Assembly: GCA_002763225.1 (NCBI GenBank)
Contig: PFAI01000022.1
Coordinates: 1-29,647 of the forward strand
Reading direction: 5' to 3'
Length of the DNA stretch: 29,647 nt
Source: Candidatus Diapherotrites archaeon CG10_big_fil_rev_8_21_14_0_10_31_34
GTDB lineage: Archaea; Iainarchaeota; Iainarchaeia; Iainarchaeales; 1-14-0-10-31-34
The stretch's first letter is position 1; the number at the start of each line of letters is the position of its first letter. A program made the translations under genes and the position numbers. The notes under the pieces were generated by a model. That model was given only the letters and a program-made list of their open reading frames with translations, had not been told where the DNA came from and did no database searches. Shown here piece by piece: positions 123-8,507 of this stretch.

Positions 123-995
123 TTAGGGCACAACCCTATTTAACTGGAATTCCAAAACATCTGTTGCTCCTGCTTTAATTATTTTTGGAAGAATTTTTGG
201 AACTTCATCTTTGTTTACTGCGACTTTTACTGCATAACCTTGTTCCCCAAAAAGCTCGCTTACAGTAGGGCTTTTCATACAAGGAAGAATTTTTATTAAT
301 CCATCTAATTTTTCTTTTGAAACATTCATTTCAAGCATTACTTTTTGCATTCCAAGCAATGCAGCTTCCAATAACATTTTTATTTCATTTATTTTGTTTT
401 TTTTCCATTTATCTTTCAAAGCTTTTTTGTTTGAAATCATTGTTGTGGTTGATTCAAAAACAATGTCAATTACTCTCAAGTTGTTTGCTTTAAGTGTTGC
501 TCCTGTTTCAGTCAAATCAATTATTGCATCAGCAAAAACAGGGCATTTGACTTCTGTTGCACCCCAGGAAAATTCTGCTTTGGCTTTAACATTGTTTTTT
601 TTGAAATATTTTTTTGTTAAATTCATTAATTCAGTTGAAACAGTTTTTCCCTCTAAATCTTTAACAGTTCTAATTTTGGATTTTTCTGGAACGGCTAAAA
701 CCCATTTAACTTTATTAAAACCTCTTTTTGCATATTCAAATTCTTTTATTTTTTCAACTTTTGCATCAGTTTCTTTGATCCAGTCCAATCCGGTTATTCC
801 TAAATCAATTACTTCATCTTCAACAAACATTGGAATCTCTTGTGGTTTAATTAAAATTACTTCTACTTCTTTATCGCTTGTTATCGGATAATAAGAACGA
901 GAATTAACTGTTATTTCAATTCCTGCTTTCCTGAATAAGTCAACTGTTGTTTTCTGTAAACTGCCTGTAGGCAATCCAATTTTTAGTTTGTTCAT
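123..995 (-). CDS. hisG: ATP phosphoribosyltransferase, long form with C-terminal regulatory domain
   Basis: Motifs IGLPTGSL, DLGITGLDW, SWGATEVK, DAIIDLTETGATLKAN, plus C-terminal SPTVSEL domain. Confidence 0.95.
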   Translation of the reverse strand: MNKLKIGLPTGSLQKTTVDLFRKAGIEITVNSRSYYPITSDKEVEVILIKPQEIPMFVEDEVIDLGITGLDWIKETDAKVEKIKEFEYAKRGFNKVKWVLAVPEKSKIRTVKDLEGKTVSTELMNLTKKYFKKNNVKAKAEFSWGATEVKCPVFADAIIDLTETGATLKANNLRVIDIVFESTTTMISNKKALKDKWKKNKINEIKMLLEAALLGMQKVMLEMNVSKEKLDGLIKILPCMKSPTVSELFGEQGYAVKVAVNKDEVPKILPKIIKAGATDVLEFQLNRVVP

Positions 996-1660
996 TTAAT
1001 TTCCTCCCATGAAATTTTTCCTGAATACAACGCCATTCCTATGATAGGTTTAACCCCAATTCTTTCCAGTTTTCTTGCTTCCTGAATTGAAGTAATTCCG
1101 CCTGCGGCACTTAATTCATTTTTTGTACATTCTTTTAATTTTTTTATTAAATCAAAGTCTGTTCCATTCATTAATCCTTCTTTTTCAACGCAAGTAAAAA
1201 GAAATTCCCCGCAATAAGGTTCTAATTCTTTAATCAATTCAAAAGGAGTTTTGCTTGTTTTTTTCTTCCATCCTTCAACAACCACTTTTCCTTTAAAAGA
1301 ATCAACTGCGACAATAATTTTTTTTCTTGGAACTCTTTCAGTTAATTTTTCAAGAAACTTTTTGTTTGCTTGAGTTCCAATAATGATTTTTTTTGCTCCA
1401 TCATCAATTAATTCAACTGCTTTTTCAATGCTTCTGATTCCTCCGCCAACTCTTGCGTTTACTATTTCAGTTATTTCTTTTACAATTAATTTGTTTTCCC
1501 CTTTATTCATTGCTGCATCCAAATCAATCAACTGCACTTCTTTAAATCCTTTAAATCTTCCGGCGAAATAAAACGGATTATCTATTTCAAAAACTTTATT
1601 TTTTCCTTGTTCTAACTGAACTACTTTTCCTTGAATTAAATCAATGCTTGGAATAATCAT
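992..1660 (-). CDS. hisA: ProFAR isomerase
   Basis: IIPSIDL..GKVVQL, IDLDAA, VGGGIRS, AAGGI; ATGA overlap with hisG. Confidence 0.92.
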   Translation of the reverse strand: MIIPSIDLIQGKVVQLEQGKNKVFEIDNPFYFAGRFKGFKEVQLIDLDAAMNKGENKLIVKEITEIVNARVGGGIRSIEKAVELIDDGAKKIIIGTQANKKFLEKLTERVPRKKIIVAVDSFKGKVVVEGWKKKTSKTPFELIKELEPYCGEFLFTCVEKEGLMNGTDFDLIKKLKECTKNELSAAGGITSIQEARKLERIGVKPIIGMALYSGKISWEEIK

Positions 1661-2436
1661 ATTCTCACCATTATATTTTGTTTTTTCAGATAATCTTTTA
1701 CTTCTTTAACTGAATACTTTCCAAAATGAAAAACGCTTGCACCTAATACTGCGTCAGCTTTTCCTTTTTTTATTGCTTCAGAAAAACTTTCAAGTGTTCC
1801 TGCTCCTCCTGAAGCAATAACAGGAATATTCACTGAATCTGAAATCAATGAAGTTAATTCTAAATCAAATCCTTTTTGTGTGCCGTCTGCATCAATTGAA
1901 GTAAGCAGAATTTCTCCTGCCCCAAGTTTTTCTGCTTGTTTTGCCCAATATAATGCATTTAATCTCTTGTTTTTTCTTCCTCCAAAAACAAAGCATTCAA
2001 ATCTTGTTCTTCCTTTAAATGAATTTTTTTTTGCATCAATTGCAACAACACAAGCCTGTGAACCAAACTCTTTGCTTATTTTTGTTATTAATTCAGGTGA
2101 ATTAATTGCAGCAGAATTAATTGAAACTTTGTCTGCGCCAGCCTTAAACAGTTTTTCTGCATCTTTAATTGTTTTAATTCCTCCCCCAACAGTTAATGGA
2201 ACAAAAACCTGTTCACTTGTTTTTTTGACTACTTCAATCATTGTTTCTCTTTTTTCTGCTGAAGCAGTTATGTCCAAAAAAACTATTTCATCTGCTCCTT
2301 GTTCATAGTATTGTTTAGCCATTTCCCAGGGAACTCCTGCATATTTTGTTTGCCTGAATTTTATTCCTTTAACTACTCTTCCTCCTTTTACTGCTAAATC
2401 GCAGTCCAAACAAACAATAATTCTTTTTGACAGCAT
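1657..2436 (-). CDS. hisF: Imidazole glycerol phosphate synthase cyclase subunit
   Basis: MLSKRIIVCLD, GRVVKG, GADEIVFLDI, VPLTVGGGI, GEILLTSIDADGT; start moved to ATG 2436, matching the family N-terminus. Confidence 0.96.
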   Translation of the reverse strand: MLSKRIIVCLDCDLAVKGGRVVKGIKFRQTKYAGVPWEMAKQYYEQGADEIVFLDITASAEKRETMIEVVKKTSEQVFVPLTVGGGIKTIKDAEKLFKAGADKVSINSAAINSPELITKISKEFGSQACVVAIDAKKNSFKGRTRFECFVFGGRKNKRLNALYWAKQAEKLGAGEILLTSIDADGTQKGFDLELTSLISDSVNIPVIASGGAGTLESFSEAIKKGKADAVLGASVFHFGKYSVKEVKDYLKKQNIMVRI

Positions 2437-2440
2437 TTTT

Positions 2441-3034
2441 TTACAACTCACTAAACCTTTTTAGTATTTTTAGTCCGTTTTCTCCTGATTTTTCCGGGTG
2501 AAATTGAAAAGCAAAAACATTTTCTTTTTCTATTCCTGAAACAAATTCTTCTCCGTTATAACTGCTTGTGCAGGAAATAATTTCTTTTTCTTCTGGAACA
2601 GCATAATAGCTGTTAACAAAATAAAAAAATTCTCCATTTAATCTTTTAAGCAACCTGCTTTTTTTTACTTGAATTTTGTTCCACCCTATTTGTGGGATTT
2701 TTTTTGGTTTTGAAAATCTTTTGTTTTTTCCTTTAAAAACTCCTAAGCCTTTTCCTTTGCTTTCCTCGCTTTCTTCAAATAATGTTTGTAAGCCTAAACA
2801 GATTCCAAGAAAAGGGGTGCCTTGTTTTATTGCCTGAATTAATGCTTTATCCAGTTTTTTTTTCTGAAGCAGTTTTATTGAGGTTCCAAATTCTCCTACT
2901 CCTGGAAAAACTATTTTTTCTGCTTTAAGTATTTCTTTTGGATTATTTGTTACACTAACTTTTTCTCCAAGAAACTGGAGAGAATTTTTCAGGCTTTGGA
3001 TATTTCCTTTTCCATAGTCAACTATTGAAATCAT
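2441..3034 (-). CDS. hisH: Imidazole glycerol phosphate synthase glutaminase subunit
   Basis: MISIVDYGKGN, FPGVG, LGICLG (nucleophile Cys), QFHPEKS; start moved to ATG 3034, 4 nt after the hisB stop. Confidence 0.95.
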   Translation of the reverse strand: MISIVDYGKGNIQSLKNSLQFLGEKVSVTNNPKEILKAEKIVFPGVGEFGTSIKLLQKKKLDKALIQAIKQGTPFLGICLGLQTLFEESEESKGKGLGVFKGKNKRFSKPKKIPQIGWNKIQVKKSRLLKRLNGEFFYFVNSYYAVPEEKEIISCTSSYNGEEFVSGIEKENVFAFQFHPEKSGENGLKILKRFSEL

Positions 3035-3038
3035 TTTT

Positions 3039-3623
3039 TTACAATACTCCTTTTGTTGAAGGCACTCCTTTAACTCTTTCATCTGTTTCTAACGCCATTC
3101 TTACAGCCCTCCCAAAAGCTTTAAACATGGCTTCAATTTTGTGGTGTGTATTTCTGCCTTCTAAAACTTTTATGTAGAGGTTTATTCCTGCATTAAATGC
3201 AACTGCTTCAAAGAAATCCTGAACTAATTCTGTTGGCAAATCCCCAACTATTTCTCTTTCAAATTCTGCTTTAATTACCGGATAACCTCTTCCACTGAAA
3301 TCAACTGCACACAACACCAGACTTTCATCCATTGGAATTAATGCATTGCCATATCTATTGATTCCTTTTTTTTCTTCTAAAGCTTTTTTTAAGGCTTGGC
3401 CTAAACAAATTCCAATGTCTTCAACTGTGTGGTGTTCATCCACTTCAAGATCTCCTTTTGCTTTTAAATTCAAGTCAATTAATGATTGTTTTGAAAACAA
3501 TTCAAGCATGTGGTTTAAGAAACCAATTTTTGAGTCAATTTCATATTGCCCTGTTCCATCAAGATTTATTTCCAGTTCAATTTCTGTTTCATTTGTTTTT
3601 CTTTCAATTCTGGCTTTTCTCAT
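3039..3623 (-). CDS. hisB: Imidazoleglycerol-phosphate dehydratase, monofunctional
   Basis: RKTNET, DEHHTVED, PMDES, NTHHKIEA, PSTKGVL. Confidence 0.97.
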   Translation of the reverse strand: MRKARIERKTNETEIELEINLDGTGQYEIDSKIGFLNHMLELFSKQSLIDLNLKAKGDLEVDEHHTVEDIGICLGQALKKALEEKKGINRYGNALIPMDESLVLCAVDFSGRGYPVIKAEFEREIVGDLPTELVQDFFEAVAFNAGINLYIKVLEGRNTHHKIEAMFKAFGRAVRMALETDERVKGVPSTKGVL

Positions 3624-4686
3624 ATTCGACTTCCTCCAAGATTTTTTTTAATTCTGCAAGAAATAATTTCATTTGATTTTGTGTTCCCACTCCAATTCTG
3701 ATGCATCCTTCAAGCAAAGAGTATCTGCTTCTGTCTCTAACTAAAATGTTTTTTTCTTTTAGTTTTTTTGCAATAATTGAAGCGTTTTCTCCAAACCTTG
3801 CAATAAAAAAGTTTGCTGAAGTAGGAAAAGTCTTTATTTGAATTTTATTGAATTCTTTTAAAGTGAATTCCCTTGCTTTCAGCACTTCTTCAATGTATTT
3901 TTCAGTGTATTCTTTGTCTTTTAATGCAGCTAACACTGCAATTACGCTTAAAGAACTCACGCTATAAGGAGAACTTGATTTCAGCAAAACAGAAATTATT
4001 TCTTTGCAACTTGTCAGAAAAGCAATTCTTAATCCAGCTAATCCTGCTCCTTTACTAAAACTTCTTAAAACAACTAAATTGCTGTATTTGTTGACTAAAT
4101 CAATTACTGTTTCTTTGCAGACATCATAATATGCTTCATCCACCAAAACCAAACAATTGTTTTCTTCTGCTTTTTCGATTATTTTAATTATTGTTTTTCT
4201 TTCAATTTTTGTTCCTGTTGGATTGTTTGGATTGCATAAAATAATCATATTTGTTTCTGGTTTGATTGCATTGAGAATTTCTTTTTCCGGAAAACTCAAA
4301 TCTTTATTGAAAAGAATTTTAGTTATTTTTGCTCCGCGCAATTCTGCATAAAACCTGAACATTGCAAAAGTTGGAACTGCAAGAATAACTTCTTTTCCTT
4401 CTTCTACAAAGCAGTCCATTAAATTTCTTATTCCTTCGTCTCCTGCATTGGTTACAATAATATTTTCTTTTTTTAATCCAACAGATTCAGCAATTTTTTC
4501 TCTTGCTTTATTGTATTCAGGGTAAATACTGAAATCTTCTGCTGTTGCATTTCTTATTGCTTTAATTACTTTTGGTGAAGGTCCTAAAGTATTTTCATTG
4601 AAATCCAGTCTTAATTTTCCTTTCCTGTTTTCTGTCGGCGGATCATATGGCTTTATTTCTTTTACTGCTTTTCTGATTTTAACCAT
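3604..4686 (-). CDS. hisC: Histidinol-phosphate aminotransferase
   Basis: RLDFNEN, CNPNNPTG, VDEAY, RSFSK (PLP lysine), GLAGLR; operon context. Confidence 0.93.
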   Translation of the reverse strand: MVKIRKAVKEIKPYDPPTENRKGKLRLDFNENTLGPSPKVIKAIRNATAEDFSIYPEYNKAREKIAESVGLKKENIIVTNAGDEGIRNLMDCFVEEGKEVILAVPTFAMFRFYAELRGAKITKILFNKDLSFPEKEILNAIKPETNMIILCNPNNPTGTKIERKTIIKIIEKAEENNCLVLVDEAYYDVCKETVIDLVNKYSNLVVLRSFSKGAGLAGLRIAFLTSCKEIISVLLKSSSPYSVSSLSVIAVLAALKDKEYTEKYIEEVLKAREFTLKEFNKIQIKTFPTSANFFIARFGENASIIAKKLKEKNILVRDRSRYSLLEGCIRIGVGTQNQMKLFLAELKKILEEVEYEKSQN

Positions 4687-5420
4687 TTAATTCCCTCCAT
4701 TAAATCTTCAATTTTTTTTATTGAATAATCTCCTAAATTTTCTTTTCCTAAATAAATTGATTTCATTTTTGCTTTTTCTGCTGCTAAAACATCATTAATA
4801 CTGTCTCCGACATAAACTGCTTTTTTTGAGCCAATATTTTTTGCAGCCAAAAACAAGGGTTTTGCATCTGGTTTGCTTTTTTTTGTGTCTTCCCTGCAAA
4901 CTATTTTCTTAAAATCAAAAAAGGCATCTAGTCCATTTAGTTTCAAAGAGTATTCTGCTTCTTTTCTTGGCCTTCCAGTAACAATTCCCAGCTTAAACTC
5001 TTTTTTTAATTCCATAAAAACTTTTTTTGGAATCATTAATTTTTCATTGTTAATCAAACCTTTTTCTTTTGAAACTGGTTTTTTTCCATAAATTGTTTTG
5101 TATAATTTTTCCCCCAGATATTTTGCCTGAAAAACTTTAAACAATTCAATATATTTTTTTCTTTTCCTGTCTTTTTCTGTTACTTTGCAGACTTTTTTCC
5201 TGAATTCTCCTGTTGAAACATTTTTTTCAAGCAGGCATACTAATTCAAAAGTTGCATCCCAGTCATTGTTGAATTCAGGGATTTTTTTTATTGCAGAAAC
5301 TTCTTCTTGTGAAACAGTTTTTCCTAAAAACTCTTTTGATGTCTGTCTTATTGCTTCTCTATAGGATTTTGATACATCGATTATTATTCCATCAATGTCA
5401 AATATTATTGAGTCAATCAT
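4662..5420 (-). CDS. HAD-superfamily hydrolase, probable histidinol-phosphate phosphatase
   Basis: FDIDG motif I, FNNDWD, VTGRP, SKP, YVGDSINDV; lies between hisD and hisC and supplies the only otherwise missing pathway step. Confidence 0.8.
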   Translation of the reverse strand: MIDSIIFDIDGIIIDVSKSYREAIRQTSKEFLGKTVSQEEVSAIKKIPEFNNDWDATFELVCLLEKNVSTGEFRKKVCKVTEKDRKRKKYIELFKVFQAKYLGEKLYKTIYGKKPVSKEKGLINNEKLMIPKKVFMELKKEFKLGIVTGRPRKEAEYSLKLNGLDAFFDFKKIVCREDTKKSKPDAKPLFLAAKNIGSKKAVYVGDSINDVLAAEKAKMKSIYLGKENLGDYSIKKIEDLMEGIKWLKSEKQ

Positions 5421-5441
5421 TTTTTTTCCTCCAAATTTTTT

Positions 5442-6713
5442 TCACTTAAATCTTATTTTAGCTGAGTTTTTGTGTGCAGGCAAACCTTCAATGTCTGCAA
5501 AAACTTCAATTGTTTTTAAAAGATTTTTTAGTCCTTTTTTTGAAATTTTCTGAATGTATTGGGTAACCAAAAAATCTCTTACATTTAATCCAGAAGAAAA
5601 CCTTGCAGTCCTTCCTGTAGGCAATATGTGATTTGTTCCAGAACAATAATCTCCTGCTGCAACAGGGCTGAATTCTCCGACAAAAATTGAGCCAGCACAC
5701 TTTATTTTTTCCAGAGTTTTTTTGTTGTCTTCAAATACAATCAAGTGCTCTGATGCAAGCTCATTTACCACTTCAATTGCCTGATTCCGTGTTTTAGTTA
5801 AAACTATTACTCCGTTTTCTTGCAATGATTTTTTGATTACTTCTTGTGTTTCAAGTTCTTGCATTTGCTTTAATACCTCTTTTTTTGTCTGTAATGCAAG
5901 ATTTTTGTTTGTTGTAACCAAAACTGTTTTAGCTAATTCATCGTGTTCTGCTTGAGCCAAAATCTCTGAAGCAATAAATTTTGAATTACCTTTTCTTGCC
6001 AGAATACAGCATTCGCTTGGCCCTGCAATTGAGTCAATCCCGACTCTTCCAAAAACCATTTTTTTTGCTGTTGCAACAAAAATATTTCCCGGTCCCATAA
6101 TTTTATCTACTTTAGGAATTTTTTTTGTTCCAAAAGCCATTGCTGCAATTGCCTGTGCTCCTCCTATTTTTGCTATTTTGTTCACTTTGCACAAGTCAGC
6201 TGCAACTAAAATAAACGGATTAATGCTTCCATCTTTTCTTGGAGGAGTGCATAAAACTATTTCCTTGCATCCTGCTGTTCTTGCCGGAACTAAATTCATT
6301 AAAACACTTGAAGGATAAGGATATTTCCCTCCCGGAACATAAACCCCTATGTTTTCTATTGGTCTAATAATTTCTCCTATTTTAACCCCTTTTCTTGTTT
6401 CAACAAACCATTTTTTTGGTAATTGTTTTTTACAGCTTTTTTCAAGATTTTTTTTAGCAAACTTTAATGCATTAAGTTCTTTTTTTGAAATTTTTTTGTA
6501 TGCCTCTCTTATTTCTTTTTTTGAAACAAGGATTTCTTTTAGCTTTACTTTATCAAATTTTTCAGTTAATTCTATTATTGCTTTATCTCTTTTTTTTTGA
6601 ACTTCTTTAATAATCTCTTTAACGGTATCTTCAATTCTTTCTGTTTCTTCTTCTTTGTCTTTCATTAAATCTTTTATTTGTTTTATTTCTTTGAATTCAA
6701 TTATTTCCATCAT
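5442..6713 (-). CDS. hisD: Histidinol dehydrogenase
   Basis: GVYVPGG, GGAQAIAAMAFGT, GPGNIFV, AGPSE, QAEHD, EHL, GDYCSGTNHILPT. Confidence 0.97.
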   Translation of the reverse strand: MMEIIEFKEIKQIKDLMKDKEEETERIEDTVKEIIKEVQKKRDKAIIELTEKFDKVKLKEILVSKKEIREAYKKISKKELNALKFAKKNLEKSCKKQLPKKWFVETRKGVKIGEIIRPIENIGVYVPGGKYPYPSSVLMNLVPARTAGCKEIVLCTPPRKDGSINPFILVAADLCKVNKIAKIGGAQAIAAMAFGTKKIPKVDKIMGPGNIFVATAKKMVFGRVGIDSIAGPSECCILARKGNSKFIASEILAQAEHDELAKTVLVTTNKNLALQTKKEVLKQMQELETQEVIKKSLQENGVIVLTKTRNQAIEVVNELASEHLIVFEDNKKTLEKIKCAGSIFVGEFSPVAAGDYCSGTNHILPTGRTARFSSGLNVRDFLVTQYIQKISKKGLKNLLKTIEVFADIEGLPAHKNSAKIRFK

Positions 6714-7021
6714 TTTAACACCTTAAAACAGTTTTTTTTGTTTAAATGACAAGCATTTCCTGTTTGTTCAACTTTAAACAACAAAGTGTCTTTGTCGCAG
6801 TCAACAAAAACTTTCTTTAATTTTTGAGTATTGCCAGAGGTTTCTCCTTTTCTCCAAAGTTTTTTCCTGCTTCTACTGTAATACCATCCTTGACTGGTTT
6901 TCATTGCTTTTTCTAATGATTCTTTAGTTGAATAAGCAAGCATTAACACTTCAGAATTTGTTTCTTCTTGAACAATTGTTGGAATCAATCCATTTCCTTT
7001 GTTCCAATCAATTTTTTTCAT
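6710..7021 (-). CDS. hisI: Phosphoribosyl-AMP cyclohydrolase
   Basis: VLMLAY, YSRSR, LWRKGETSGN, DCDKD, ACH..CF. Confidence 0.95.
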   Translation of the reverse strand: MKKIDWNKGNGLIPTIVQEETNSEVLMLAYSTKESLEKAMKTSQGWYYSRSRKKLWRKGETSGNTQKLKKVFVDCDKDTLLFKVEQTGNACHLNKKNCFKVLK

Positions 7022-7320
7022 TATTTCTCCTCTCCAGTTCCATAAAAACTTCTTTTAGTTTTACTTCTCGTTTTGCAAGCAAAACCATCAAAAAATAGAG
7101 TAAATCAGCTGCTTCCCAGATAACTTCTTTTTTTTCTTTTATTTCTGCTGCTTCAATTAGTTCTTCGCTTTCTTCACTAACTTTTTCTATAAGAAGCAAG
7201 GGATCTTTAAGTAATTTGCATGTAAAAGATTTTTCAGAAAAAGATTGTTTTCTTTTTTCAATGATTTTTTCAAGGGAAAATAAATCAAATTCGTTTTTTG
7301 TGAACTAAATCCCTTCTCAT
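7008..7320 (-). CDS. hisE: Phosphoribosyl-ATP pyrophosphatase; full length (~103 aa) needs a +1 frameshift between 7305 and 7285
   Basis: Open frame 7304-7008 reads FTKNEFDLFSLEKIIEKRKQSFSEKSFTCKLLKDPLLLIEKVSEESEELIEAA…WEAADLLYF…ELERR; an in-frame TAG at 7307-7305 bounds it and no ATG/GTG/TTG precedes the conserved N-terminal helix; ATG 7320 with a GGTG RBS is in another frame. Confidence 0.85.
7285..7320 (-). CDS. 11-aa leader ORF MRRDLVHKKRI overlapping the start of the hisE frame
   Basis: ATG AGA AGG GAT TTA GTT CAC AAA AAA CGA ATT TGA, preceded by TGGTG-TTTTT; GGTG RBS is also seen before rpl35ae and iscU. Confidence 0.6.
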   Translation of the reverse strand: MRRDLVHKKRI

Positions 7321-7376
7321 AAAAACACCAGAAACTATTCTTTCCTCTGAATAAATAAAATCAGCGATGAACTAAA

Positions 7377-7427
7377 CCACTTAGTGGGAATAATGTGGGA
7401 ATCATATACTGATAGAGTTGGGTAATC
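7377..7427. promoter_or_regulatory. Candidate operator upstream of the his operon
   Basis: GTGGGAAT at 7384-7391 and 7395-7402 (11-bp period), variant GTTGGGTAAT at 7417-7426, palindrome CCACT-T-AGTGG at 7377-7387. Confidence 0.5.
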
Positions 7428-7430
7428 TTT

Positions 7431-7817
7431 TTAAACCTTTGCAAATGTTGCTTTCAAAATCAGTTTTTCTTTTTCTAAATCTTTTTTCACTTTCGCTAAG
7501 TTTACTTTACTAAAATCTGCTACTACACTCCATAAAGCTTCTTTCCCTCTTTTTGTGCTTCTTGATTCAGTAAAAACCAAATCTACTTTGTTTTTCCTTA
7601 AAACTTCTGCTGCTTTTGCTAATGAACCAGGGTTGTCACTCAAAAAAATATGCATTTTTTTTACTTTTCTTTCCAGTGGGAACAATATTATTCTTTCGTT
7701 TTCTTTGTCTAATTCTGCAATGATTTTTTCTCCTTTTTTTATTCCTAATGATTCTCTGAATGAGTTTGGAATGACTATTCTCCCTTTTGAATCAATTTTT
7801 GAGTTTTGTGTATTCAT
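7431..7817 (-). CDS. AbrB/MazE/MraZ-type DNA-binding domain fused to an ACT domain
   Basis: N-terminal KIDSKGRIVIP..FRESLGI..GE; C-terminal LSDNPGSLAKAAEVLRKNKVDL (ACT signature DxPGxLA..NI-like). Confidence 0.85.
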   Translation of the reverse strand: MNTQNSKIDSKGRIVIPNSFRESLGIKKGEKIIAELDKENERIILFPLERKVKKMHIFLSDNPGSLAKAAEVLRKNKVDLVFTESRSTKRGKEALWSVVADFSKVNLAKVKKDLEKEKLILKATFAKV

Positions 7818-7883
7818 GCATTAATTACTGCTTTTCACTTATTTAATGTTAGTGTTAAATACTTGTCTGGTTTTATTTAATTC

Positions 7884-8507
7884 ATGAAAAACTGGGTTTG
7901 TTTTATTTTGTTATTACTGTTTGTTTTTTCTTTTGGTTGTCCTGAAGAAAAAAAAGAAACAAATAATAATTTAGTTGATTTGAATTCAGCTTCTGTTCAG
8001 CATGGTCCTCCAGAAGAATTTGAGTATTTGGATTACACTAATTATAATGTTTTTGAAATGGAAAAAAATATTCATTCTTTAATTAATGATGAAAGAACCA
8101 AATTAGGTTTAAACACACTTGAATTTGACGAGCATTTGGCTTTGATTGCAAGAAAGCACTCTAAAGACATGGCAGACAAAAATTATTTTTCTCATTTTGA
8201 TTTACCGGGAAATGATTTTAGTTATCGTTATGAACAATCAAATTATGATTGTAAAATTGTGGTTGGAAATCTAATTCATTTGGGTGCAGAAAATTTATTT
8301 AAATACAATATAGCTAAACTGGTGTATACTTCCGGCGGGGTAGCTGAATATAATTCTCAGGCAGAATTAGAAGTAGCGGCAGTTGAAGGCTGGATGAATT
8401 CTCCTGGTCATAGAGAAAACATTGAAAAAGAATTCTGGCTAAAAGAAGGAATCGGAGTCTATATTGACGAAGAAGGAGATGTTTTGGTTACTGAAAACTT
8501 TTGCTGA
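7884..8507 (+). CDS. CAP/SCP-domain secreted protein, probable lipoprotein
   Basis: Signal peptide ending FSFGC; INDER..GL, ARKHSKDM..YFSH, GAENL, WMNSPGHRENI. Confidence 0.9.
   Translation: MKNWVCFILLLLFVFSFGCPEEKKETNNNLVDLNSASVQHGPPEEFEYLDYTNYNVFEMEKNIHSLINDERTKLGLNTLEFDEHLALIARKHSKDMADKNYFSHFDLPGNDFSYRYEQSNYDCKIVVGNLIHLGAENLFKYNIAKLVYTSGGVAEYNSQAELEVAAVEGWMNSPGHRENIEKEFWLKEGIGVYIDEEGDVLVTENFC

Follow-up and report, generated by a model that had tools for sequence, protein, structure and literature searches.

An out-of-frame start of hisE conserved in a Diapherotrites lineage, with a candidate +1 ribosomal frameshift site at the head of the histidine operon

Programmed +1 frameshifting at a stop codon is known from the prfB gene encoding RF2, where the motif is CUU UGA C, and from antizyme, where it is UCC UGA U. 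The +1 site of Ty1 is described in the part of a 2016 survey drawn on here, which also reports that in insect endosymbionts slippage at long poly(A) tracts puts 12-50% of the transcripts from frameshifted genes back in frame, one histidine biosynthetic gene included (PMC5009743). Among archaea, the sole demonstrated programmed frameshift named in the part of a 2021 review drawn on here is that of Saccharolobus solfataricus fucA1, a -1 shift on A AAA AAT, most orthologues being uninterrupted and the frameshift being present only in strains P2 and 98/2 (PMC8211752). The same part of the review gives no +1 frameshift in a cellular archaeal gene, a +1 event being merely suggested for the haloarchaeal virus HSTV-2 (PMC8211752), and the survey agrees with it on archaeal frameshifts in the part concerned (PMC5009743); the literature searches made here turned up no frameshift described in hisE and none in DPANN archaea. 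The subject of this analysis is hisE, the phosphoribosyl-ATP pyrophosphatase gene that heads a his operon in a stretch of 29,647 nucleotides of Candidatus Diapherotrites archaeon CG10_big_fil_rev_8_21_14_0_10_31_34 (the window: contig PFAI01000022.1 of assembly GCA_002763225.1, positions 1 to 29,647), and that begins one base out of frame with its apparent start codon. This arrangement is a real feature, conserved and unusual; most likely it is a +1 recoding site whose mechanism is of a kind already known and whose setting is new, and it is proposed with moderate confidence that hisE is entered through a conserved +1 ribosomal frameshift within GTT CAC AAA AAA CGA ATT TGA.

Coordinates are window positions, and all statements on the leader, hisE and the operon refer to the minus strand (Table 1). 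An earlier note on this DNA, made from the sequence alone, had held that the hisE frame is closed by a TAG (7307-7305) with no usable start behind it, that an ATG at 7320 preceded by a ribosome-binding site opens the peptide MRRDLVHKKRI, and that a +1 shift within the seven codons given above is needed for a HisE of about 103 residues; all of this was borne out by reading of the open reading frames (ORFs). The earliest ATG, GTG or TTG in the hisE frame is the TTG at 7199, codon 36, and the leader runs in frame 0 from ATG 7320-7318 to TGA 7287-7285. The start codon at 7320 looks real, judging from its surroundings: the Shine-Dalgarno (SD)-like GGTG lies at the position preferred in this genome, whose G content upstream of the ATG codons of long ORFs is highest at -9/-8, and GGTG precedes 64 of 765 such ATGs as against 5 of 765 internal control stretches (12-fold). 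The product of the hisE frame matches the Pfam PRA-PH profile PF01503 at E 7.2e-23 (residues 10-94, profile positions 3-86 of 86), so that the four-helix domain is present in full and in the context of a his operon; HisE and HisIE chains in PDB match it at E 7e-10 to 4e-8, with alignments beginning at residues 7-8. In stand-alone HisE homologues the alignment begins at residues 6-8 and the N-terminus usually lies 3-6 residues further upstream, which places the natural N-terminus of HisE, by homology, inside the permitted shift window and makes the MRRDLVHKK.. tail one of ordinary length.

The layout was compared in four sequences: the window, a genome of the same genus (G002), a second locus of the window's own genome (C2) and a metagenome contig (L123). 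The genome that holds the window (G000; 1.04 Mb in 65 contigs, 30.8% G+C, 81% complete) carries C2 on contig C16, which matches the window's contig at this locus only. The HisE of C2 is 66% identical in amino acid sequence to that of the window, that of L123 73% and that of G002 93%; the C2 locus is 99.96% identical in nucleotide sequence to metagenome contig L052, and L123 is 88.6% identical in DNA to C16. The out-of-frame layout is present in all four clade members found, with at least two metagenome contigs (L052 and L123) among the matches listed: the shared frame-0 sequence, ..AGA AGG GAT (T/C)(T/C)A GTT CAC AAA AAA (CGA ATT / AGG GTT) TGA, ends in a register that differs from that of hisE by one base, and a stop shuts the hisE frame just upstream in every case, TAG also in C2 and L123 and, in G002, which has CAG, a TGA four codons upstream. 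G002 retains the GGTG, which is missing from C2 and L123 together with the leader ATG, these two carrying an indel of 24 nucleotides, a multiple of 3; in both, an upstream TAG reads TAC and frame 0 stays open as far upstream as a GTG that precedes the stop by 25 codons. The chance of an accidental open frame with a start in C2 and L123 is estimated at about 5%, a suggestive figure and no more.

A one-base assembly error or recent mutation, offered in the earlier note as the simple explanation, is rejected because four diverged sequences have the layout in common and purifying selection acts on the hisE body of each. Other one-base frame breaks beside homopolymers do exist that are specific to G000, but the four sequences come from separate assemblies, one of them has a different run length with compensating frame relations, and Logan contig X2, from an independent sample and the only one of contigs X1-X4 to bridge 7292-7314, is identical over 6900-7439 with no differences and no gaps; an error of one homopolymer base is close to refuted. 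A look for RNA data sets over 6700-7900 listed none. The check on relatives proposed in the earlier note, for a conserved out-of-frame ATG and His codon, came out positive in part, the layout and CAC being found in all four sequences and the ATG only in the window and G002. As for further relatives, a protein-pattern scan of metagenome contigs confirmed none, a scan of genome contigs found no close relative besides G002, and a word-indexed protein search returned nothing beyond the window's own cluster; in an exhaustive protein search the nearest sequence outside the cluster was P0002, 55% identical, with an in-frame start.

Scans of G000 for paired ORFs and for start-less ORFs with coding potential, from which 11 candidates were taken to Pfam, gave mostly ordinary gene overlaps and antisense frames, and two real 5' frame breaks emerged. 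A DUF5698/DUF2179 membrane-protein gene (L177:601-1194; G000:C47:18671-19264, plus strand) has its ATG one base out of frame beside a T9 run, and a gene for a lipoprotein with SNase and lamin-tail domains (L172:1-789, minus strand; G000:C16:18240-19028) has an SD-led ATG that is one base out of frame, the surplus base following it directly. The relatives of the former have an in-frame ATG (three of three: G001, G002 and G004) and those of the latter an in-frame ATG or GTG (four of four: G001, G002, G003 and G005), so both breaks are errors or mutations specific to G000, the break in hisE is by the same comparison a property of the lineage, and conservation discriminates between the two situations. 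In a further ORF (L176:601-1164; G000:C58:6051-6614), a weak match to ParB_N (E 6e-6) starts 45 codons ahead of the first canonical start; no overlapping upstream ATG ORF is present, and an A8/T6 run lies near the 5' end of the ORF. An MBF1-like gene, scoring 104 bits against a cut-off of 110 bits, has no bearing on the frameshift question.

Selection on the protein is evident from codon 7 of the hisE frame onward. Over codons 7-96, the ratio of nonsynonymous to synonymous substitution rates (dN/dS) is 0.12-0.30 in all six pairwise comparisons, with dS of 0.27-1.78, and between C2 and L123, both without the ATG, it is 0.19, which shows that hisE has been translated throughout this divergence. 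A start-less downstream frame kept in four of four sequences under purifying selection is what is found when overlapping frames are sought at this locus. When the four sequences are compared, codons 7-12 (D L F S L E) show at least 10 base changes, every one synonymous (for example TTA/TTG/CTT/CTT and CTT/CTG/TTA/TTA), and codons 1-6 show no synonymous change at all; by this synonymous-only variation, translation in the hisE frame begins at GAT 7286 or earlier. Starts at the ATC chosen in the public gene call P0001, which is 85 residues long, or at TTG 7199 are ruled out by the same variation. Non-canonical initiation in the hisE frame more generally (at ATC 7265, at ATT 7262 or at the TTA/TTG/CTT of codon 8) could draw on that gene call and on the TTG at codon 8 of G002, but is very unlikely: all of the changes in codons 7-12 lie upstream of the ATC, which has no ribosome-binding motif before it; the PDB homologues align from residues 7-8; codon 8, being TTA, TTG, CTT and CTT, is kept as Leu and not as a start; and between TAG 7305 and codon 8 there is no near-cognate start in the four sequences.

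The leader itself is conserved in a different way. Its last 33 nucleotides (AGA to TGA) have 1-4 differences between the sub-lineages versus 23-29% in the body of hisE (P 0.002-0.02), and the switch from invariant bases to synonymous variation lies exactly at the frame-0 TGA. The leader has few changes, and these make better sense in frame 0: Arg is retained through the two base changes from CGA to AGG, Ile gives way to Val where ATT becomes GTT, the change from TTA to CTA is silent, and TTA to TCA is the sole clear replacement. The three bases changed in C2 convert CGA ATT into AGG GTT, which in the hisE frame would turn Asn-Glu into Lys-Gly; one in nine double changes such as CGA to AGG would keep Arg. 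These changes fit a frame-0 reading through the Arg and Ile codons, past the CAC, although this is one comparison and only a hint. A frame-restoring indel in the A run (A6 at 7299-7294, T6 on the plus strand) has become fixed in none of the four lineages.

Slippage is known from runs of 9 or more residues, and no long homopolymer is found here (A6 in three sequences, A7 in one). Transcriptional slippage, in which RNA polymerase would drop one A or add two in this run, is nevertheless an alternative with something in its favour, if a fairly unlikely one: the genome has 31% G+C and is about 1 Mb in size, the run is kept in all four sequences and its single change lengthens it, loss of one A would restore the frame in the A6 and A7 versions alike, and such rescue of frameshifted genes in AT-rich reduced genomes appears in the part of the survey cited above (PMC5009743). 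Against this, runs of 6-7 are short compared with the long runs of the cases given there (PMC5009743), selection should lengthen the run, and slippage leaves unexplained both the absence of synonymous change in AAC GAA TTT after the run and the retention of the frame-0 Arg in the change from CGA to AGG.

Under the ribosomal shift favoured here, ribosomes would initiate in frame 0, at the SD-led ATG 7320 in the window and G002 and, in the lineage of C2 and L123, possibly at the GTG, which is the sole candidate for a frame-0 start there. The short basic leader ..RRDLVHKKR(I/V) would be translated first; a fraction of the ribosomes would then shift +1 inside the 21-nucleotide window and produce HisE of about 103 residues with an N-terminal tail of normal length, and those that do not shift would terminate at TGA 7287-7285. 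That the event is ribosomal, where it takes place, and that it would run at a set level rather than under regulation is what we infer from these comparisons. Any +1 move between GTT 7305 and TGA 7285 yields a sensible protein, and three places have textbook features. The two most likely sites would be the one with AAA in the P site and CGA (AGG in C2) in the A site, and the one with AUU or GUU in the P site and UGA in the A site. At the former, the A-site codon is rare, as in a Ty1-type site, on the basis of codon frequency and not of tRNA abundance: of about 275,000 codons 173 are CGA (0.63 per 1000, about 2% of Arg codons), compared with 5.8 per 1000 for AGG and 23.3 per 1000 for AGA, and in C2 the sequence AAA AAA AGG combines an A7 run with a minor Arg codon and allows perfect re-pairing. 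At the latter, a shifty stop, UGA is present in four of four sequences, AUU or GUU would re-pair on UUU at two of three positions, and GAY (Asp) is read next. The third place is GUU-CAC, the His site, with the SD-like AGGG 5 nucleotides upstream. The change from CGA to AGG and the sharp boundary at the TGA favour the stop-codon site.

The TGA is, from its usage, a genuine stop in this organism: the 854 long ORFs end in TAA (512), TGA (258) or TAG (84), and TGA closes hisE where its homologues end and hisI in an ATGA overlap with hisD. Several other routes into the hisE frame were set aside by eye, with no dedicated search for any of them. Decoding of TAG or TGA as sense is incompatible with the termination of hisE and hisI by TGA and with the further frame-0 stops; a -1 shift on A AAA AAC, a heptamer that is present in the hisE frame, leads the wrong way; hopping, or an mRNA intron of the bulge-helix-bulge type, between the copies of GATTTA 25 nucleotides apart finds the repeat not kept in G002 and no complementary helix evident; and for termination-reinitiation, a TTG follows the stop in G002 only. 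No credible quadruplet-decoding tRNA (with an 8-nucleotide anticodon loop) was found by ARAGORN in the genome, which is 81% complete, the sole four-base call ('cggg') becoming an intron-containing tRNA once introns are allowed.

Several observations weigh against a programmed shift or against its placement. There are four sequences from two sub-lineages; the GTG of C2 and L123 has no SD motif and lies within a promoter-looking region, which makes the frame-0 start uncertain there; and the operon around C2 is a remnant in which a deletion has left a hisD'-'hisG fusion. Folding gave no sign of a stimulatory RNA structure (z-score 0.53; consensus fold of -4.9 kcal/mol, covariation absent), and no Rfam match was found at E up to 1 in 6900-7900. 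The nearest SD-like element, AGGG at 7314-7311, is 5 nucleotides before GTT and 20 before ATT, unlike the 3-nucleotide spacing of RF2, and re-pairing in the P site is two of three positions at each candidate site, the A7 run of C2 excepted. A Phe of the nearest stand-alone homologues corresponds to the conserved Phe6 (TTT), and this speaks for a shift that precedes the stop-codon site. Finally, the leader motifs TTTAGTTCA and ATTTGATTTATT recur in the promoter region, and the conservation of the leader could instead reflect DNA operator sites. The last point is also part of the possibility that the break is an old, tolerated lesion without any programmed signal, HisE being made by background errors or being dispensable and the leader being conserved as promoter or operator DNA. 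This accords with the recurrence of the motifs, with the conservation of the entire intergenic region, with the remnant state of the C2 operon and with the further 5' frameshifts specific to G000, yet it is an unlikely explanation, for dN/dS of 0.12-0.30 over dS of up to 1.8 amounts to continued translation, the operon is otherwise complete, so that HisE is needed, frame-restoring indels in the A run should be frequent and none has been fixed, and the synonymous-only variation begins exactly past the overlap.

The region at 7340-7410, between the leader and the next gene upstream, likely contains the promoter and operator sites, as suggested by its motifs: tandem repeats containing TCCCAC (tandem GTGGGAATmAT at 7384-7405), a CCACT-A-AGTGG palindrome and a TATA-like TTTTATTTATT. 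It has copies of the leader motifs TTTAGTTCA and ATTT(G/T)ATTTATT, 67-71 nucleotides upstream of the leader versions, and the intergenic region is better conserved than the flanking genes. Part of the conservation of the leader could thus be that of operator DNA, and amino-acid control could act on transcription. Within the promoter-like region there is also a 14-codon ATG ORF, MIPTLFPLSGLVHR (7404-7360, minus strand), which is open in all four sequences, reads MNPTLFPLSDLLHY in C2 and L123, and also has the ending ..L-V/L-H-x-stop; its changes are one synonymous and four not, and no ribosome-binding motif precedes its ATG, so that its conservation is probably at the DNA level. The gene directly upstream, in the same orientation, encodes a protein that matches MazE_antitoxin (8e-10) and ACT (4e-4, below the Pfam cut-off); it is syntenic in G002 and C2, with its 3' end present in L123, and on domain content its product is a candidate amino-acid-responsive regulator of the operon.

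Regulation could in principle be exerted through the leader, as a translational switch in which the supply of charged tRNA (His at CAC, or Arg at CGA/AGG) sets the entry of ribosomes into the hisE frame; this is quite unlikely. By leaving a ribosome-free hisE exposed, such a switch might in addition govern what share of the ten-gene mRNA is finished or translated. The specific form of a histidine sensor, put forward in the earlier note, in which scarcity of His-tRNA would leave the CAC at 7302-7300 empty in the A site, Val-tRNA on GUU would slip +1, HisE would rise and the downstream enzymes would follow through coupling, is coherent as an idea but very doubtful. In its support may be cited the CAC at the first permitted position, invariant in four of four sequences; the low His content of the operon (0.50% vs 1.29%), against which a non-catalytic His codon stands out; the sensible direction of the regulation; and the SD-like AGGG 5 nucleotides upstream of GUU, AGGG being enriched before starts in this genome. 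However, the whole leader is invariant and the conservation of CAC therefore says nothing specific; one His among 11 codons is expected about 13% of the time by chance at 1.3% His; CAC is perfectly matched by the only tRNA-His found (GUG); the changes CGA to AGG and ATT to GTT look like selection on frame-0 codons past the CAC; hisI has a strong ribosome-binding site of its own; the conserved AbrB/ACT-like gene and the operator-like repeats upstream offer a conventional route; two classical slow A-site codons in the shift window, CGA and UGA, work without starvation; and there is no match to a His leader or any other Rfam family.

The operon is a compact set of ten genes in the order hisE, hisI, hisD, HAD gene, hisC, hisB, hisH, two His_biosynth barrels and long-form hisG. 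Two further claims of the earlier note were sustained, namely that hisE overlaps hisI, whose ATG is at 7021, and that the operon is purged of histidine: the ten proteins (126-7304, minus strand) have 12 His in 2419 residues, or 0.50%, as against 1.29% in a rough set of 854 long ORFs of the genome (binomial P 7e-5). Proteins of a biosynthetic pathway that are poor in their own cognate amino acid are a known kind of bias. His is wholly absent from the HAD protein, HisC, HisG, HisE and one His_biosynth barrel, the remaining residues being in HisD, HisB, HisH, HisI and the other barrel. Within the order, 35 of 196 genomes have a match to hisE; beyond this genus all the matches listed sit in long open frames, and all those inspected (L004, L005, L006, L008, L009 and further loci) are fused, as HisI-HisE or as HisG-HisE, family f20 having HisG(short)-HisE followed by hisI. 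A free-standing hisE that heads the operon before hisI, with long-form hisG at the far end, appears from these comparisons to be peculiar to this genus or clade, and plausibly hisE lost its start upon severance from a fusion partner. The second his locus of G000 (L002, G000:C16:3789-7079; also L052) is a remnant in which the AbrB/ACT-like gene, hisE and hisI are followed by a fusion ORF (619-1194, minus strand; 191 residues) made up of the first ~35 residues of HisD and the C-terminal half of HisG; the interior of the operon has been deleted, and hisE and hisI are intact.

Table 1. Features of the hisE leader, the his operon and the upstream region (window positions)
Feature	Position	Strand	Basis or detail
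Frame-0 leader ORF	7285..7320	-	ATG AGA AGG GAT TTA GTT CAC AAA AAA CGA ATT TGA = MRRDLVHKKRI, then stop
TAG shutting the hisE frame on the upstream side	7305..7307	-	ORF reading
hisE (phosphoribosyl-ATP pyrophosphatase) frame	7008..7304	-	98 codons + TGA 7010-7008; +1 relative to leader
Shine-Dalgarno-like GGTG	7326..7329	-	-9 to -6 of ATG 7320
Permitted +1 window, GTT CAC AAA AAA CGA ATT TGA	7285..7305	-	Limits: hisE-frame TAG and frame-0 TGA
Sole His codon of the leader, CAC	7300..7302	-	Identical in 4/4 sequences, neighbours too
Candidate site 1, AAA AAA CGA (A6 + very rare Arg codon), Ty1-like	7291..7299	-	Codon usage
Candidate site 2, ATT TGA T shifty stop, RF2/antizyme-like	7285..7290	-	GTT TGA T in C2, ATT TGA C in G002
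hisI	6710..7021	-	ATG at 7021; shares 14 nucleotides with the end of hisE; own ribosome-binding site GGAGAGGAG
hisD, HAD phosphatase, hisC, hisB, hisH, two His_biosynth barrels (hisA/hisF), long-form hisG	123..6713	-	Pfam
Promoter/operator-like region	7340..7410	-	Four-sequence alignment; direct repeats D1-D3
AbrB/SpoVT-type DNA-binding + ACT-like domain gene, 128 residues	7431..7817	-	Pfam, synteny

If the proposed shift is real, hisE would be the first cellular gene of an archaeon known to have a programmed +1 frameshift and, should the leader also respond to tRNA charging, the first with an amino-acid-responsive one. A +1 site that several lineages keep in a core biosynthetic operon would show that the ribosomes of these archaea, which are little studied and small in genome, use such decoding for housekeeping genes, and the site is short (21 nucleotides) and testable. 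Gene callers miss or truncate this hisE, and the histidine pathway could consequently be scored as incomplete by mistake in metabolic reconstructions.

Among known systems, hisL attenuation likewise has a short His-containing leader ORF before a his operon, but the leader described here, in an archaeon, has one His codon among 11 and no consecutive His codons, no hairpins (fold z-score 0.53), alternative or terminator, were found and there is no Rfam match, and the proposed output is the reading frame instead of the termination of transcription. Like hisE, fucA1 is a cellular gene of an archaeon that is divided between two frames and has an A-rich site beside rare codons (CAC in fucA1, according to the part of the review drawn on above); the shift proposed for hisE is +1, and all members of the clade among the matches listed are interrupted. 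The endosymbiont cases are alike in that the genome is small and AT-rich, the frame breaks within an A run and the biosynthetic gene has been retained; here, however, the run is of 6-7 residues, diverged lineages have the break in common and the bases after the run are invariant. With RF2 and antizyme there is the common pattern NUU UGA Y, with a stop in the A site, GAY (Asp) next and a short zero-frame product that is discarded; the P-site codon here is AUU or GUU and not CUU, no SD-like element lies 3 nucleotides upstream, no downstream pseudoknot was detected, and there is no link to the level of a release factor or of polyamines. Sites of the Ty1/ABP140 type (yeast CUU AGG C) resemble this one in the rare Arg codon that comes after the P-site codon, in the +1 direction of the shift and in needing no downstream structure; they differ in that AAA would here re-pair on AAC at two of three positions (three of three in C2), that the host is an archaeon, and that the shift would fall 8-9 codons past the start of a housekeeping enzyme gene rather than where two long ORFs meet in a mobile element.

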